Below, one piece after another: positions 5,946-46,192 of a stretch of 55,583 bases of DNA (positions are counted from its first letter, which is position 1; each line of letters begins with the position of its first letter). The stretch is from a bacterium (GTDB lineage Bacteria; Patescibacteriota; Microgenomatia; UBA1400; UBA12108): positions 1 through 55,583 of the forward strand of contig JBAXNV010000003.1 of NCBI GenBank assembly GCA_037133595.1, in the 5' to 3' direction. The notes beneath the pieces are model-generated. The model was not told the origin of the DNA, made no database searches, and saw only the letters and a program-made list of their open reading frames with translations. The position numbers and the translations under genes were made by a program.

Positions 5946-7283
5946 TTATTTTGTATTACTTCGTATTCTATCCCAATACTTGCCTCGGCGACAGAGGCGA
6001 TTTGCATCTTTTTTGTCGGCAAGAAGAACTTCGACCACGCGCTCAAGCAGAATTGTATTTTGGCTACCCTTGATAATGACCCAAGACTTGGCTGGGAGAT
6101 TTTTGGTGAGATGAGCATTAAGTTCTTTGATTGTGTCAAAATGAAAAACAGGGAACTTGGCGGTTACTAGTCTTGGAAGAGTGTAAGCTTTGGTTTCGTT
6201 ACCAAATAAATAACAGATGTCACAATGTTGCATTATTTCATCGGCCAATTTGCGATGAGCGGACTTGCTAATAGTACCAAGTTCCCTAAGGTCGCCAAGC
6301 ACAGCTACTGCCTTACTCCTACCTGCAATGTGCCGTAATAACTCGAGTGCGGCAGATACTGTTTTGGGCGAAGAGTTGTATGAAGAATCGATAAGTGTAC
6401 TACCTTTGATCCCGTCGAAAATTCGCATACGACCTGGGGGGATTATTCGACCAAGATTTTGCGCAGAGCTAAGTGCCTCTACGCCGTGAGCAACAGATAC
6501 ACCAAGACTAGCCCCAACGCCTAGTGCGAGCCCAAAAGTGAGAGCGTAGTTTTTTTCGAGCAAAATAGGCAAGTTGAGAGTATAAACTTGTCCCTGGTAG
6601 CGATATTTGGCGGCAAAGCCAGATTTGTTGATGATCGTCTCGACGAGTTGGAGCGAAGCTTTTCTACTTGTGCCAACCCCAAGTTGCCTGGCCCTTGAGC
6701 TACGCACCAGCTGCCTGATTATTGCATTGTCATAGTAATACACGGCGACCCCACTAGTAGACAAGTGAGTGAGCAGTTTGCCATTTTCACGCACAATTGC
6801 CGCCTCAAGCTTGAGGCTACGACGAGCTGGGTGGTGATCTGTTACCAAATGATCAAAACCGTCGCTATGTACAACACCCGAGCTTACATATACCCCAATG
6901 TCGGGGCTTATTATTGATAGTAAGTAATCCATATTCTTGGGTGATTTGGCTGAATCTGCCTCCATCTCGGCGACATAATAAGCGTAGGATTCGCGAGACA
7001 ACAATCGAAACGGCGCTAGAGCACACATGCGCAACCAATCTAGAGGCGAGTAGTCTGTTGGCGTGAGATTGAGAATATTTAACGAAATACCAGATTCGGA
7101 GTTGGCATGTATCGACTCTTTGACTTGGCCTTTGGTGGCAAGAATCTGTACTATGGCTTTGCGGCAACTCGTCTTACCGGCGCTACCTGTAACCCCGATT
7201 ACGATCGGATGATTCTGGGCAAGCTTGAGATGCGCAAAAAACCGCAGATAATTGAGAATAAGTAAGCCTATTTTTTGACGCAT
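5946..7283 (-). CDS. murF: UDP-N-acetylmuramoyl-tripeptide--D-Ala-D-Ala ligase (Mur ligase)
   Basis: GVTGSAGKTS P-loop, PGRM, IDSSYNSSP, VLGDLRELG and IKGSQ motifs. Confidence 0.88.
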   Translation of the reverse strand: MRQKIGLLILNYLRFFAHLKLAQNHPIVIGVTGSAGKTSCRKAIVQILATKGQVKESIHANSESGISLNILNLTPTDYSPLDWLRMCALAPFRLLSRESYAYYVAEMEADSAKSPKNMDYLLSIISPDIGVYVSSGVVHSDGFDHLVTDHHPARRSLKLEAAIVRENGKLLTHLSTSGVAVYYYDNAIIRQLVRSSRARQLGVGTSRKASLQLVETIINKSGFAAKYRYQGQVYTLNLPILLEKNYALTFGLALGVGASLGVSVAHGVEALSSAQNLGRIIPPGRMRIFDGIKGSTLIDSSYNSSPKTVSAALELLRHIAGRSKAVAVLGDLRELGTISKSAHRKLADEIMQHCDICYLFGNETKAYTLPRLVTAKFPVFHFDTIKELNAHLTKNLPAKSWVIIKGSQNTILLERVVEVLLADKKDANRLCRRGKYWDRIRSNTK

Positions 7284-41542: not shown

Positions 41543-42172
41543 TTAGAGTATATCACGGAGGAAGGTAGCTAGCGCTTGGGAAGACTCTTCGTAGTTGCGG
41601 GGATCGTAGAGAAAGGTAGTCCACCCTAGGCTTTTGGCTGGTTCAAGATTTTCTGAGAGGTTGTCGATAAAGAGAATCTCGTTGTGGGGAACCCCAGCGG
41701 ATGCCTGAGCAATATTATAGATCTCGAGCTCTGGCTTGTAGGCATGAGCAATACTACTATCTACGATTTGATCCCAAACAGTAGAAGGGAGTAGGCCACG
41801 CTCCTCGATTCCAACGAGTAAATTGGGGTACATATTGGTGAGCAGGCCCAATTTGTACTTGGGTTGAAGAGAGTCGAGAATGGGCCAAAGCGAAAGGTTG
41901 GGGGAAAACTTGGAGGTCATATAACCACGCAGGGAAAAGTTTGGTGGAAACTTGATATCTAGTTTTTGCTCGAGCTCGGGCATAAGCGAGTCAATGTCGA
42001 TCTTGCCCTCATTGGCAGCTGGCTCATACTTGTCATAGAGTTGGTCGCAAAGTTGGTCTTTGTCGGGTGGTACACCAAGAAACTGTTTCATCTCCTGCCA
42101 TTTATTGGTCGCAGAAAAGTCTTTAATAAGTACCCCGCCGACGTCGAAGTAGACAAAAGATATTTTATTCAT
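41543..42172 (-). CDS. HAD-superfamily phosphatase (YihX-like)
   Basis: FDVGGVL, LLTN, KP..IY and FIDN motifs; overlaps the serS stop. Confidence 0.9.
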   Translation of the reverse strand: MNKISFVYFDVGGVLIKDFSATNKWQEMKQFLGVPPDKDQLCDQLYDKYEPAANEGKIDIDSLMPELEQKLDIKFPPNFSLRGYMTSKFSPNLSLWPILDSLQPKYKLGLLTNMYPNLLVGIEERGLLPSTVWDQIVDSSIAHAYKPELEIYNIAQASAGVPHNEILFIDNLSENLEPAKSLGWTTFLYDPRNYEESSQALATFLRDIL

Positions 42173-43430
42173 TGGATTTGACGCTGATTTTGTCAAAACC
42201 TGTGTACTTGACTAAACATTTGGGGATCTTTACTGAGCCGTCATCTTGCTGGAAGTTTTCGTAGATCGCAATCATGGCACGGCCAAGAGCAAAGACAGTG
42301 CCATTGAGCGTGTGGAGATACTCAGTATGCCCGCCGCGATTGAGCTTGATACCAAGCGCGCGACTTTGAAAATCTGTAGTGTTACTGGTACTGGTTACCT
42401 CGCGGTACTTGGTTTGCGATGGCATCCATGCTTCGATATCGTACTTGCGAGTTGCAGCATTGCCAAGATCGCCGGTTGCCATTTTGATTACCTGGTAAGG
42501 AATACCAAGTTGTTGCCAAAGACCCTCTTCGATGGCAAGTAGTTTGTCGTGCCAAACATCAGACTCTTCGGGTTTGCAAAAAACAACCATTTCGACTTTG
42601 CGAAACTCGTGGACGCGTAAGATCCCGCGAACATCTTTGCCATAACTACCTCGCTCTTTGCGATAGCACGAAGAATAGCCTGCGTATGCTTTGGGGAGTT
42701 CTTTCTCAACAAAAGTTTCATTCTCATGCATGCCAACCAACGTGATCTCAGCTGTTGCAATCAAATCCAAATCCTCGTCTTCGATATGATAAACTTGGCG
42801 CTCTTTGTCGCTTCTAGCCTGAAAGCCACAGCCGACCATGTTCTTTTCTTTGGCCATATTTGGAGTAATTACGGGGGTAAAGCCCTGTTTACCTAGCTCG
42901 CTAAAAGCAAAGTTGATAAGCGCCATTTCCAAGAGTGCTCCCTTGCCCTTGAGGTAGTAAAAGCCAGATTGAGAAACTTTGGCGCCGCGTTCTATGTCGA
43001 TTGTATCTGTGAGCTCACCTATCTCCACGTGATCCTTTACGGGGTAAGAAAAATTGGGTACTTGTCCAACAGTTTTTACTACTTCATTGTCTTCAGGAGT
43101 ACCTACTCTGACATCGGGAGCCGATGGATTGGGAATCCGGAGCATGAGAATGGCGAACTGAGATTCGAGCTCTGCGAGAGAGGCTTCTAGTGACTCCAAT
43201 GAATTTTTGAGATCTTTGCTACGCGCAATCATCTCGTCACTACGACTTGTTTTGAGCTCAAGATTTAGCTTGTTTCTCTCGGCTCTAATTGCTTCTACCT
43301 GGCCGATCAACTGCCGACGGTTTTTGTCGACATTTAATAGATCATCGATGACTGCTGCGTCAAATCCCTTGGCTTTTGTAGCCTTTTTTATAATCTCTGC
43401 GTTATCTCTAATATATTGAATATCTAGCAT
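42165..43430 (-). CDS. serS: Serine--tRNA ligase
   Basis: MLDIQYIR, ATAE, CYRKE.G, RVHEF.KVE, YREVTS.SN.TDFQ and HTLNGT motifs. Confidence 0.99.
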   Translation of the reverse strand: MLDIQYIRDNAEIIKKATKAKGFDAAVIDDLLNVDKNRRQLIGQVEAIRAERNKLNLELKTSRSDEMIARSKDLKNSLESLEASLAELESQFAILMLRIPNPSAPDVRVGTPEDNEVVKTVGQVPNFSYPVKDHVEIGELTDTIDIERGAKVSQSGFYYLKGKGALLEMALINFAFSELGKQGFTPVITPNMAKEKNMVGCGFQARSDKERQVYHIEDEDLDLIATAEITLVGMHENETFVEKELPKAYAGYSSCYRKERGSYGKDVRGILRVHEFRKVEMVVFCKPEESDVWHDKLLAIEEGLWQQLGIPYQVIKMATGDLGNAATRKYDIEAWMPSQTKYREVTSTSNTTDFQSRALGIKLNRGGHTEYLHTLNGTVFALGRAMIAIYENFQQDDGSVKIPKCLVKYTGFDKISVKSNE

Positions 43431-43451
43431 AGTGACTCCTTTTAATGATTA

Positions 43452-44087
43452 TTATAGTGCATGTAAGGCAAGGTTGGTGCGAAAGTATCGAAGATGTGAA
43501 TCTTCATTGATTTTTTCGATTGTCGCAATACCTTGGTCGATACTGATCGTCGTAATACCTGCAGGATGAAGGTGGAAATCCCAAAAATGACTGGAGGGAA
43601 GATTTATTAGATTTGCCACAGCCATGCGAATAATGTTGTCGTGGGTAACAAATACAGTATTAGCTTTGACTTGAATAGCTTCTTGGAACCATTCATCCAC
43701 CCTTTTACTAAGCAAGACGAAAGACTCTCCATTGGGAAAGGAGACACTGCCCGGATCATGATTCCAGCTATTTAAGATGCTTGCCCACTTACTCTCTATT
43801 TCTGACTTGGACTTGCCCTCCCAATCCCCATGGTTTGTCTCCAAGAGCCGAACGTCGATTTGGATTGGAATCTTGGTAGTTAGACTGATTTGCTCGGCAG
43901 TTTTGTAGGTACGCGTAAGAGGGCTGGCAAAGATAGCCCCAAGCTGCTTGTCGGCAAATACGGCGGAAAGAGTTTGGATCTGGTGATAACCTAAAAGAGA
44001 AAGATCGGTATTGTACGTTTGTCCTTGATAGATTCCCTGAGTATTTGCGATAGACTCGCCATGCCGAATTAGATAAATTTTTACCAC
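43452..44087 (-). CDS. Histidine phosphatase, probable metal-independent phosphoserine phosphatase (PspA/iPSP-like)
   Basis: RHGES, YQG, SPL.R, E..HG.W.G, GES and THD motifs, with a C-terminal extension ending HAL. GTG start with SD AGGGGG. Lies upstream of serS and downstream of a Ser T-box. Confidence 0.8.
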   Translation of the reverse strand: MVKIYLIRHGESIANTQGIYQGQTYNTDLSLLGYHQIQTLSAVFADKQLGAIFASPLTRTYKTAEQISLTTKIPIQIDVRLLETNHGDWEGKSKSEIESKWASILNSWNHDPGSVSFPNGESFVLLSKRVDEWFQEAIQVKANTVFVTHDNIIRMAVANLINLPSSHFWDFHLHPAGITTISIDQGIATIEKINEDSHLRYFRTNLALHAL

Positions 44088-44230
44088 TATTACCCCCTGT
44101 CCTGCTCACGGCCTTTTGGGAGGTGCCACCTTGCGCTAATTCTTGATTGTACTGCGATCACGGGCTTACCCGGAAGAGTTATTACCCTCTCCAGCTTGTT
44201 TTGGTGGAAATCCAAAACTTGTAACGCTGT
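44088..44230 (-). promoter_or_regulatory. T-box riboswitch, Ser-specific (UCC), ultra-short Stem I, probably translational
   Basis: Minus strand: CAGC..GUUUUGG-AUUUCCA-CCAAAAC..GCUG (Stem I with UCC in the terminal loop); hairpin GGAGAGGGU-AAUA-ACUCUUCC (Stem II); GGG-UAAG-CCC-GUGAUC (IIA/B-like); AAGG-UGGCACC T-box bulge (44122-44128). ACCUCC can pair with the SD GGGGGU. No U-tract terminator. Confidence 0.82.
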
Positions 44231-44246
44231 TATTTAATTTAGAGAT

Positions 44247-44255
44247 AGTATAGCA
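44247..44255 (-). promoter_or_regulatory. Extended -10 promoter (TGcTATACT) for the T-box leader
   Basis: Sits about 17 nt upstream of Stem I. Confidence 0.6.
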
Positions 44256-44283
44256 CTTTTGGTTAAGCAGGGAGAGAATTATA

Positions 44284-45729
44284 TTATTTTAACTGGGGGA
44301 GTACATCATGTTGGGATGACATGCGATGACGAAGTAAAAATGTAGTATCAGTACCCATACGACTTGAGTTAATCGTTTTGACAAATTGAGTACTAGAATT
44401 TTGATATTGTAGTGAGGTATACAGATCTACAATATCTCTGGGAAGATTCTCTGATCCCCACCCATATACCAAATCTTCTGGGGAACAAATATGAATACTG
44501 TTAATAAATTGTTCCGGAGCAATTCCACTATGAGACTCTAGATACATCTCTCCAAAATTCTGGGTATCTGGTACTGAATAGTATTTGTACTGAAACCCTC
44601 CTTTTTTTGTAGTAAGTCTGTAAATGTCCTGAGAATCGATAATTTTTCTCCTACGCGCAGGTCCTTGCCATTTGCTTTTTGGTGGTGGAGCATCTGGATC
44701 TGGCTCGTATACAATTCTTTTGTTCGGTTGTGAAAACAACAGATCCCCATTTTTGTCCATCCCAATGCGAAATATCTTTTCACTTTCATCTTCATGATTC
44801 TGAATTACTAATTCTAGATCATGATGGGCTTCGACATCTCTTTTCATCAACAAGAGGAGTTTTTTTTGAAGTGAAAAGTTGATATTATGAGACTGCTCTA
44901 CTGAGGCACCGTCAATATACCCATCTAGCTCGATTAGTTCTTGTATTAGCGAGTAACGAAGCAAATGCTGTGTCTCGGTAATATGCTGCGTAAATATTTG
45001 TTTTAATAATGCGGGCGAAGAGAATAAGCGCGTCGTGAGCTCGCTATTTCTTTCTGGATCCGTTACAACAAAGCGCTTGGATAAATCTGGTGTACGTAAA
45101 GCAGATATCTGCCCAATGAGCGAGCTGTCGTTTACATCTAAAGCATAAATTGACCAGCACTTCTGGCCATCGATAGTAATAATCTCAAAAATTGAGTTAT
45201 GGATCAGCTCAGATAGTTGGGTGCTGTCTCTAAGGATTTGTTCTGGATCCTGAGTTTGAGTATCATCGCAAACGGCAACATCTGTTCGAAGGAGTATCGC
45301 CTCGATTAATTCACTGTATTCTCTTTGCAACTCTAGATTTGACTTGGTTTCCTCAGAAGATGAGTTATCTTTTGTAACATATTCTTGTAGCTCTGAGATT
45401 CGCAATTCATTTTCTTCTGGCAATGAAAGTTGATCCGCGACTTGTAGTACTTGATCAAAATCGCCAACATCTACTGGCGCAGGGAATTCGTCAACAATGC
45501 CATCTAGAGCCTCCAACTTGAGTGAGTCTCCCAAACGCAACATCCTTATGAAGTAATCCTCGAACTGCTCCTCAGGAGATATTATATGTGAATGCCTAAG
45601 ATGAGACTCGACTAGATCGATGTGTCGAAATGGATTATGACTAGACAAACTCTTGGCGATAAGTTGCGGCAATATTTGCTCAAAGGCACCTGAGTTGTCT
45701 GGTTCTGGCAAGGATTCAATCTTAGACAT
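44284..45729 (-). CDS. Acidic hypothetical protein
   Basis: Long ORF; the start MSKIESL overlaps the Nudix stop. No motif recognised. Confidence 0.75.
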   Translation of the reverse strand: MSKIESLPEPDNSGAFEQILPQLIAKSLSSHNPFRHIDLVESHLRHSHIISPEEQFEDYFIRMLRLGDSLKLEALDGIVDEFPAPVDVGDFDQVLQVADQLSLPEENELRISELQEYVTKDNSSSEETKSNLELQREYSELIEAILLRTDVAVCDDTQTQDPEQILRDSTQLSELIHNSIFEIITIDGQKCWSIYALDVNDSSLIGQISALRTPDLSKRFVVTDPERNSELTTRLFSSPALLKQIFTQHITETQHLLRYSLIQELIELDGYIDGASVEQSHNINFSLQKKLLLLMKRDVEAHHDLELVIQNHEDESEKIFRIGMDKNGDLLFSQPNKRIVYEPDPDAPPPKSKWQGPARRRKIIDSQDIYRLTTKKGGFQYKYYSVPDTQNFGEMYLESHSGIAPEQFINSIHICSPEDLVYGWGSENLPRDIVDLYTSLQYQNSSTQFVKTINSSRMGTDTTFLLRHRMSSQHDVLPQLK

Positions 45730-46192
45730 GTAGGTTGATACTACCAGCTTTGGAGATTTGCGCAAATACTGCTTCAACCGTTTCCTTGGTCTGAGGAAGA
45801 CAGTCGAGAGTATCTAGCTCTGAAAGGGTAAACCAGCGGTAGCTAGCGGTCTCGTGCTCTGGATCGCGAGTGAGATCAATCGCCTGGTCACCGATATCAA
45901 CAGCATAAGTGAGCAAGAGAATGTGAGCTGTTTCCCAGAGCGCTGTCACGGGGACTGGGTACTTGGAGATATAGCCTAGAGGTCCGTCCCCTAGGGTGAC
46001 GCCAAGCTCTTCTTTGAATTCGCGGATTAATGTTTCTTCTGGTTTCTCTCCCCATTCCATCCCACCGCCTGGAATATTCCATTTGAGATGAAAAAGAGGA
46101 TCGGTTGGTTCGTTGCGCTGTGTAAGTAAAAATGATCCATCTTGCCTAACTGCAAGACCCGTTACTCCAACGGTAATAAATTTTTTACTCAC
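45722..46192 (-). CDS. Nudix hydrolase
   Basis: Nudix box GGGMEWGEKPEETLIREFKEELG; GTG start in a GTGA overlap with the HD gene. Confidence 0.9.
   Translation of the reverse strand: MSKKFITVGVTGLAVRQDGSFLLTQRNEPTDPLFHLKWNIPGGGMEWGEKPEETLIREFKEELGVTLGDGPLGYISKYPVPVTALWETAHILLLTYAVDIGDQAIDLTRDPEHETASYRWFTLSELDTLDCLPQTKETVEAVFAQISKAGSINLHV

Follow-up and report, generated by a model that had tools for sequence, protein, structure and literature searches.

Translational T-boxes with a short or ultrashort Stem I reportedly precede ileS in Mycobacterium and Nocardia, an observation ascribed to Sherwood, Grundy and Henkin in 2015. Two further sources describe such ileS leaders for Actinobacteria (PMC7583486, PMC7778990). 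A 2020 review has translational T-boxes as ‘mostly identified in Actinobacteria’ (PMC7583486), and the class II model of TBDB was searched only in Actinobacteria and among class I matches with a truncated Stem I (PMC7778990). A literature search with the group names of the Candidate Phyla Radiation (CPR), covering few subscription journals, found nothing linking T-boxes to CPR bacteria, and non-Ile translational T-boxes and short-Stem-I transcriptional T-boxes were absent from the papers listed. Here we analyse a stretch of 55,583 nucleotides (‘the window’, in its entirety) from a CPR genome, in which a minus-strand leader at 44088–44241, ahead of a histidine-phosphatase gene and serS, is almost certainly a serine-specific T-box. 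The whole explanation, a Ser T-box that would act on the phosphatase gene by sequestering its Shine–Dalgarno (SD) sequence, we put at a probability of about 0.65, a figure set by its weakest step, which is that SD sequestration is the working output in the source genome. An earlier sequence-only reading had already taken the host for a CPR bacterium, and its placement in the Microgenomates group bears this out.

Architecture and detection of the leader

The elements named in the sequence-only reading (a −10 element, Stem I, Stem II, a IIA-like element, the UGGCACC bulge and an anti-SD/SD pair) were all recovered in place on the minus strand (Table 1). An independent metagenome contig (run X2, record 2) matches 43820–44280 with 0 differences. 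Stem I is indeed ultrashort, with the specifier displayed in the 7-nt terminal loop of a 7-bp hairpin. Where other T-boxes carry a K-turn, the window has the internal loop GUUACAA/AA instead of ...GA/(G)A, a degenerate form that lacks the K-turn consensus. The family itself has the feature: in a 31-sequence alignment (A3), the 5′ GA is present in 20 rows, the 3′ A in 25 and both in 16. The IIA element is nearly invariant across relatives, and theirs aligns to the IIA/F-box positions of the Rfam T-box model RF00230. By eye, no IIB pseudoknot partner, Stem III or S-turn was identified in the Ser leaders. Three caveats of the earlier reading, a degenerate K-turn, the lack of a clear S-turn and a weak antisequestrator, thus proved justified.

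Transcription likely starts about 7 nt 3′ of the −10 element. The motif TGnTAnAnT was seen by eye 19–22 nt from the leader sequence AGCG in 11 of the 12 family leaders that have 5′ sequence. As a qualification, a −35/−10 scan, which requires a −35 box, found no full promoter at the leader.

Detection rests on a covariance model, R2, constructed from nine relatives’ serS leaders with the window and its two closest homologues excluded. Across the 55.6-kb window it gives exactly one match, at 44104..44237(−), with 67.3 bits and an E value of 3.1e-16, which is rough because the calibration was shortened; a further model, R1, scores the window leader at 95.4 bits. The leaders of three relatives match RF00230 with 36.7 bits (E 1.1e-4), 29.7 bits (E 0.007) and 24.9 bits (E 0.12), all below its gathering score of 93 bits. 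Their alignments run from the first to the last model position with 82–86 Stem I positions deleted, in line with the ultrashort Stem I; they take in the base of Stem I and, after it, Stem II, the IIA/F-box element and the T-box, antiterminator included. The 67.3-bit match to R2 is what ties the window to these RF00230-matching relatives. Together with the covarying homologues and a specifier that matches the regulated gene, it upholds the T-box identity first proposed from the letters alone.

The sole significant RF00230 match in the source genome (labelled G000) lies elsewhere, on contig C12 at 5963–6180 (+) (L001:1501–1718); at 53.1 bits (E 3e-11) it stays short of the gathering score (93). 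Its Stem I is long and looks canonical, a Stem II and a IIA element are present, and the 21 model positions that hold the T-box bulge are absent from the alignment. It sits upstream of a 375-aa open reading frame (ORF; L001:1776–2903) that has no Pfam match.

Relatives, covariation and specifier

We collected relatives through serS in 24 genomes of the family and sought leaders upstream; the phosphatase was dropped as a search handle, being present in just 2 of 23 family genomes. A homologous leader precedes serS at 13 of 22 loci of the family, and the other 9 (among L026–L044) have none. The TGGCACC matches of G005, G007 and G006, at −373 and −421 relative to serS, fall within the upstream gene.

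As a separate observation, several of the serS loci that lack a leader (G009, G005, G007, G002 and G021) carry a −10-like element, CATGAGATAATAT, where the upstream gene ends, only a few nucleotides before the serS ATG, a placement that suggests leaderless or near-leaderless serS mRNAs in those genomes.

Beyond serS, R1 picks up matches, often two to five per genome, in 114 of the 151 genomes sampled from the order, and in 21 of 23 genomes of the family. Across the phylum they occur in 17 of 151 sampled genomes, a count in which G000 and two others from its order are included. Among 31 + 22 aligned matches, 51 have a Stem I hairpin of 3–7 bp with a loop of about 4–9 nt; the two weakest are L096, with no clear Stem I hairpin, and L088, with no T-box. 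A strict 30-nt T-box-core pattern was found in 3 of 286 genomes of the order, and the order-wide pattern CCCGT..GGTGGCACCTCC in 7 of 286, among which L100, L102 and L103 are terminator-type and L101 looks like chance by its matched sequence. A pattern scan of public genome contigs returned 15 loci, of which 13 were rejected as fortuitous, since they lie in coding regions of genomes with high GC, and the remaining two are G004 and G014; a metagenome scan gave three loci. The public record of G014 (L016) is titled ‘uncultured Pseudomonadales bacterium’, probably a mislabel, because its CPR-type leader and operon are the same as those in a Microgenomates-group metagenome-assembled genome. Judged by its sequence, the window leader is not an isolated oddity; it is a member of a large CPR clade of ultrashort-Stem-I T-boxes that serves at least five amino acids.

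The earlier reading had proposed comparing homologous leaders, and the comparison came out in its favour, with the UCC loop, UGGC and the helices conserved. In A3, 91.3% of cells are paired and 21 of 27 pairs show double changes; the covariation score is 0.62, compared with at most 0.12 when partners are slid by one to three columns, and 0 of 500 shuffles reach the observed values. Double changes affect 3/4 and 6/6 pairs in Stem I helices 1 and 2, respectively, and all five pairs of Stem II (helix 3) changed on both sides across the 31 sequences.

At the 3′ side of the Stem I loop, the triplet that a purine follows tracks the downstream gene. For the Ser type we used 26 leaders, reading the loops of G020, G010 and L079 by eye; left out were G022 (its 5′ part is cut by the contig end) and the later finds L100, L102 and L103, all three of which carry U-runs. 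UCC occurs in 24 of these and AGC, from the other serine codon box, in 2, each followed by a purine; the first gene is serS in 18, a histidine-phosphatase gene in 5 and a SerB-like HAD phosphatase gene in 3. Elsewhere in the clade, GAC precedes aspS (3/3), AUC ileS (5/5) and UGG trpS (2/2), with gene names from NCBIfam, and GUC precedes valS (1/1). The window, with UCC-A, fits this rule.

The other proposed contact with the tRNA agrees. The source genome encodes tRNA-Ser(GGA) at C27 5969–6053, with discriminator G73 and no encoded CCA, and the discriminator is G in all its tRNA-Ser genes; UCC:GGA and UGGC:GCCA therefore both fit. The window has the 7-nt UGGNACC bulge with N complementing this discriminator, and UGGC is found in 25 of 26 Ser leaders, the single exception being UGGU. 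The serine specificity claimed at the outset is thus borne out by the UCC-A loop, by UGGC opposite G73 of tRNA-Ser(GGA) and by the UCC or AGC of the relatives.

Two further observations concern tRNA matching. UGGA or UGGC is found in 3 of 5 ileS leaders (L062, L074, L075) and UGGU in 2 of 3 aspS leaders (L063, L069), so that N of UGGN there is off the usual discriminator fit; the usual discriminators are A73 in tRNA-Ile and G73 in tRNA-Asp. ARAGORN also calls a tRNA-Ser with anticodon ACT and an encoded CCA on contig C13 of the source genome (2217–2304), between tRNA-Ser(TGA) and tRNA-Ser(GCT), an odd-looking anticodon call.

Expression platform and competing explanations

From the letters, the window leader had been read as having no terminator and as pairing ACCUCC with the SD, and both points stand. 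A simple terminator scan found no terminator-like site in the leader on the minus strand, there is no U-run, and the minimum-energy fold pairs ACCUCC with GGGGGU at −11.7 kcal/mol, compared with −6.3 kcal/mol when the SD is forced open. An SD sequestered by the 3′ side of the T-box, with no intrinsic terminator, is found in the window and not in 25 of the 26 Ser leaders: these 25 carry a U-run (at least five U within 140 nt of UGGN), and the window alone has none. In all 12 family leaders with a U-run, the minimum-energy hairpin ends at that run (−14 to −27 kcal/mol), and its 5′ strand begins inside UGGCACC or just upstream. Helices that share the T-box 3′ side and exclude each other are thus found in 12 of 12 relatives and, as ACCUCC:SD, in the window. 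The relatives’ platform would be the classic T-box competition between terminator and antiterminator, and their leaders look transcriptional. ‘Ultrashort’ does not imply ‘translational’, because most members of the clade carry a U-run or terminator. Assignment to the translational ultrashort class, part of the earlier reading, hence holds for the SD pairing and missing terminator of the window and fails for its relatives, which are mostly terminator-type; for the window itself, a translational mode follows from structural logic only.

In the mechanism that we propose, Stem I, reduced to the internal loop at the K-turn position and the 7-bp hairpin, would offer UCC and the following purine from its 7-nt loop to the anticodon GGA, flanked by Stem II and the IIA element, while the UGGC bulge would pair with the free G73-C-C-A end of uncharged tRNA-Ser. 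With no uncharged tRNA, ACCUCC would pair with the SD GGGGGU and translation of the histidine-phosphatase would be blocked; with uncharged tRNA-Ser bound, ACC and its flanking bases would be held in an antisequestrator and the SD would be free. tRNA binding, translational control, the substrate of the phosphatase and co-regulation of serS are what we infer from this arrangement. Translational control is rated below T-box identity because no covariation tests the sequestrator or antisequestrator.

The strongest competitor keeps the Ser T-box and makes its output transcriptional or dual, with ACCUCC/GGGGGU as a decayed or non-canonical terminator, a pause site or a Rho-entry site and SD occlusion as incidental. 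The U-runs of the Ser leaders and the terminator hairpins of the 12 folded family leaders speak for it, as do the closest homologues, G004, G014 and the metagenome locus L080. There, ACCUCCU pairs with AGGAGGU or GGGAGGU and U5–7 stands right behind this helix, which could both terminate transcription and hide the SD. In the window, however, no U-run follows the helix (GGGGGUAAUAGUG) and no terminator-like site is present. The helix is also short (6–8 bp) and has a loop of about 20 nt, dimensions not typical of an intrinsic terminator. The four leaders of this subtype (the window, G004, G014 and L080) all have the SD as its 3′ strand and the start codon within 4–7 nt, and helix formation must for this reason also block initiation. 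We therefore consider a transcriptional or dual output unlikely, though it is the alternative that survives best. As an observation on the G004 and G014 leaders (L045 and L041), forcing the SD open lets GGCCGUGAG pair with UUUUAUGGCC across the start codon, a helix absent from the window.

Far less probable is a decaying remnant that has regulated nothing since the phosphatase gene was inserted before serS and the terminator was lost. Its degenerate K-turn and minimal helix A2 and its standing as the only Ser leader without a U-run fit such decay, and 9 of 22 family serS loci manage without a leader. On the other side, the helices are all intact, as are the promoter, the IIA element, UGGCACC and the UCC-A loop, and complementarity to the SD is kept. 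Within the four-leader subtype the platform is 76–98% identical, compared with 64–70% for the adjacent coding DNA, and GGCCGUGAGC is invariant in all four.

Several observations weigh against SD sequestration by a Ser T-box, and they differ in which part they touch. As regards T-box identity, the RF00230 search proposed in the sequence-only reading came out negative, with no matches at the gathering score over the whole window and none even at E ≤ 10 when 43950–44400 was searched. (A Plastid-rps12 match in the latter interval, on the other strand with E 6.3, was judged chance.) The K-turn consensus is absent from the window leader, the whole-leader fold has no extra stability relative to shuffles (z −0.09), and A3 was aligned to the model, which favours structure counted on it.

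As regards the output, G004, G014 and L080 keep their U5–7 between the helix and the start codon, and these three closest homologues may act on transcription. The antisequestrator of the window is weak by eye: A2 has about 2 bp, and in A1 CCGUGAGC pairs with GCGCAAGG (44136..44129) with two purine–purine mismatches. The four subtype leaders are nearly identical here, so that there is no covariation for the SD helix or the antisequestrator. A supposedly compensatory change in the SD helix (ACCUCCC/GGGGGU in the window, ACCUCCU/AGGAGGU in G004 and G014) was rejected on a register check, since one pair is lost and another changes on one side only (U-A to U-G). Contigs from four DNA runs show 0 differences over 43400–44500 and hence no natural variation with which to test pairing. 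Searching 286 genomes of the order gave no second case of ACCUCC:SD pairing without a terminator, so that the missing terminator could reflect recent decay instead of a switch designed to act on translation. The serine-pathway genes that were not found, considered with the operon below, add to these points.

Chance resemblance in AT-rich intergenic DNA, to which the missing Rfam match and a fold z-score of about zero might point, we reject, since the independent model R2 matches with E 3.1e-16, the homologues covary and the specifier agrees with the downstream gene in every class examined.

Downstream genes and comparison with known systems

Table 1 Features of the leader and its surroundings in the window
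Feature	Position	Strand	Description
497-aa ORF	44284..45777		No family match found (NCBIfam and Pfam searches)
Intergenic stretch	44283..44088	minus	196 nt, between the 497-aa ORF and the histidine-phosphatase gene
Extended −10 element TGCTATACT	44255..44247	minus	Hexamer TATACT at 44252..44247; read in the sequence
T-box leader RNA	44088..44241	minus	5′ end approximate, inferred from the −10 element
Stem I	44192..44229	minus	About 38 nt: base helix, internal loop, hairpin and terminal loop
Stem I base helix	44229..44226 and 44195..44192	minus	CAGC with GCUG
Stem I hairpin	44218..44198	minus	GUUUUGG/CCAAAAC, 7 bp; 7-nt loop AUUUCCA
Specifier UCC	44208..44206	minus	Followed by conserved purine A44205
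Stem II hairpin	44191..44174	minus	GAGAG-GGUAAUAA-CUCUU; plain 5 bp
Stem IIA hairpin and F-box-like CCGUGA	44172..44156	minus	CGGG-UAAG-CCCG; CGGGUAAGCCCG, then UGAUC
CGGGUAAGCCCGUGAUC	Between Stem II hairpin and UGGCACC	minus	Read in the sequence
T-box bulge UGGCACC	44128..44122	minus	UGGC complements the tRNA-Ser 3′ end G73-C-C-A
Anti-SD ACCUCC	44124..44119	minus	Overlaps the 3′ half of the T-box bulge
GGCCGUGAGC	44104..44113	minus	Putative 3′ strands of helices A2 (GG) and A1 (CCGUGAGC) of the antisequestrator
SD GGGGGU	44097..44092	minus	5 nt upstream of GUG; 3′ strand of the sequestrator helix
GUG start codon	44087..44085	minus	Phosphatase gene
Histidine-phosphatase gene	43452..44087	minus	211 aa, GUG start; first gene behind the leader
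TATAAT	43451..43456	minus	Overlaps the stop codon of the phosphatase gene; serS starts 20 nt further on
serS, seryl-tRNA synthetase	42165..43430	minus	421 aa; second gene, 21 nt after the phosphatase gene
HAD-type hydrolase ORF	41543..42196	minus	217 aa; overlaps the serS 3′ end

The source genome has 0.95 Mb, 42% G+C and a completeness of 99%. The earlier expectation of serS downstream holds in part: serS is present, but as the second gene, and the gene under direct control would be the histidine-phosphatase gene. We take the product of 42165..43430 to be serS by recognition of its sequence; it is 45–67% identical to full-length homologues in the family (E 2e-79 or better) and 37% identical to a second copy in G008, and the G004 match is partial. 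Between the two genes, CATGCACTATAAT (43451..43460, minus), which contains the TATAAT of Table 1, is conserved in G000, G004 and G014 and also encodes the conserved C-terminus HAL*, and this TATAAT is a possible second, separate promoter for serS. The HAD-type ORF behind serS, which adds another phosphatase-like gene to this gene string, has its best match to TIGR02247 (72 bits, below the cut-off).

The window phosphatase matches PF00300 with 163 bits. It resembles the PspA phosphoserine phosphatase in aligning over nearly its full length to the NCBIfam profile NF045917 (residues 1–202 of 211 to profile positions 1–203) and in having as its best match in the PDB 4ij5, ‘Phosphoserine phosphatase 1’ (E 1.3e-24). 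It differs in scoring 132 bits, far under the equivalog cut-off of 350, and CobC scores as well (134 bits, also below its cut-off). The PspA-type assignment thus rests on operon context and the match to 4ij5. As to the context, the order Ser T-box, phosphatase, serS was seen eight times with two unrelated phosphatase folds. Five loci have the histidine-phosphatase version (G000, G004, G014, L080 and L081, the last from another order and with a phosphatase 40% identical to the window protein), and three have a SerB-like HAD-IB phosphatase (L079, L083 and L090). The L079 protein reaches 92.7 bits against the SerB model, whose cut-off is 144, and clears that of HAD-IB; the proteins of L083 and L090 are presumably SerB-like, judging by eye and only by their DxDST-type N-terminus. 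G024 (L100) repeats the L079-type leader with a SerB-like gene. The window phosphatase thus occupies, behind a Ser T-box, the place that a SerB-like HAD phosphatase takes in other CPR genomes, and two unrelated folds filling the same operon slot would argue for phosphoserine phosphatase activity. The window protein is probably such an enzyme (putative, PspA-like). Neither serC (TIGR01364) nor PGDH (TIGR01327) was found in G000, G004 and G014, which puts the source of phosphoserine in G000 in question; the same search found SHMT present.

Taken jointly, three propositions have in our judgement an even chance of being right together. CPR bacteria would carry a large clade of minimal T-boxes missed by Rfam thresholds, with a terminal-loop specifier and no elbow platform, serving at least Ser, Asp, Ile, Trp and Val and acting mostly through intrinsic terminators. 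In the window, a terminator switch would have been converted naturally into one that works purely by SD sequestration, and it would be the first translational T-box that is neither Ile-specific nor actinobacterial. The Ser regulon would mark the histidine-phosphatase as the phosphoserine phosphatase in organisms where SerA and SerC were not found. The clade-wide result is probably more interesting than the single locus. A terminator-type minimal clade would, if true, run against the view that transcriptional T-boxes need a long Stem I. If its leaders work, recognition of the tRNA elbow is not needed for co-transcriptional sensing, and speed and affinity must then come otherwise, perhaps from the Stem II loop or from slow CPR transcription. 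The window and its relatives offer a matched natural pair, sequestrator type and terminator type, for mechanistic study. Standard Rfam annotation misses these T-boxes in CPR genomes, and their specifiers are usable for annotating genes in poorly understood genomes, as here for a probable phosphoserine phosphatase.

With canonical RF00230 T-boxes, such as those of Firmicute serS and tyrS, the leader shares the order of K-turn position, Stem I, Stem II and IIA/F-box CCGU.A, followed by an antiterminator-like helix that holds the T-box AA..GGUGGNACC; in the relatives, as in the canonical type, terminator and T-box overlap. It differs in the roughly 82–86 Stem I positions missing in relatives, which comprise the distal loops, the AG bulge and the internal loop of the specifier, in scores far below the gathering score and, for the window, in having no terminator. 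The glyQS T-boxes, as described in PMC7583486, have a reduced architecture too, but the opposite one: they keep a long Stem I and drop Stem II and IIA/B.

The actinobacterial ileS class is the closest relative in design. It shares with the window an apical-loop specifier followed by a purine, a truncated Stem I without a tRNA-elbow platform, Stem II and a IIA/B-like element, the UGGN bulge and proposed SD sequestration. In CPR genomes, Ile and Val leaders, unlike Ser leaders, carry GAAGAA...AGUAGA in Stem II, which is S-turn-like. Among the Ile/Val-type leaders L062, L065, L072, L074, L075, L087, L089, L098, L099, L093 and L095, several have both a start codon 0–30 nt past the T-box helix and no clear U-run; these leaders resemble the actinobacterial class more than the Ser leaders do. 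The window leader differs from the actinobacterial class in being specific for Ser (UCC, UGGC) rather than Ile and in coming from a CPR host of the Microgenomates group rather than an actinobacterium. No S-turn is recognisable in its Stem II, which is a plain hairpin of 5 bp, and its A2 is minimal rather than expanded; it would regulate a phosphatase gene, and its sister leaders are terminator-type.

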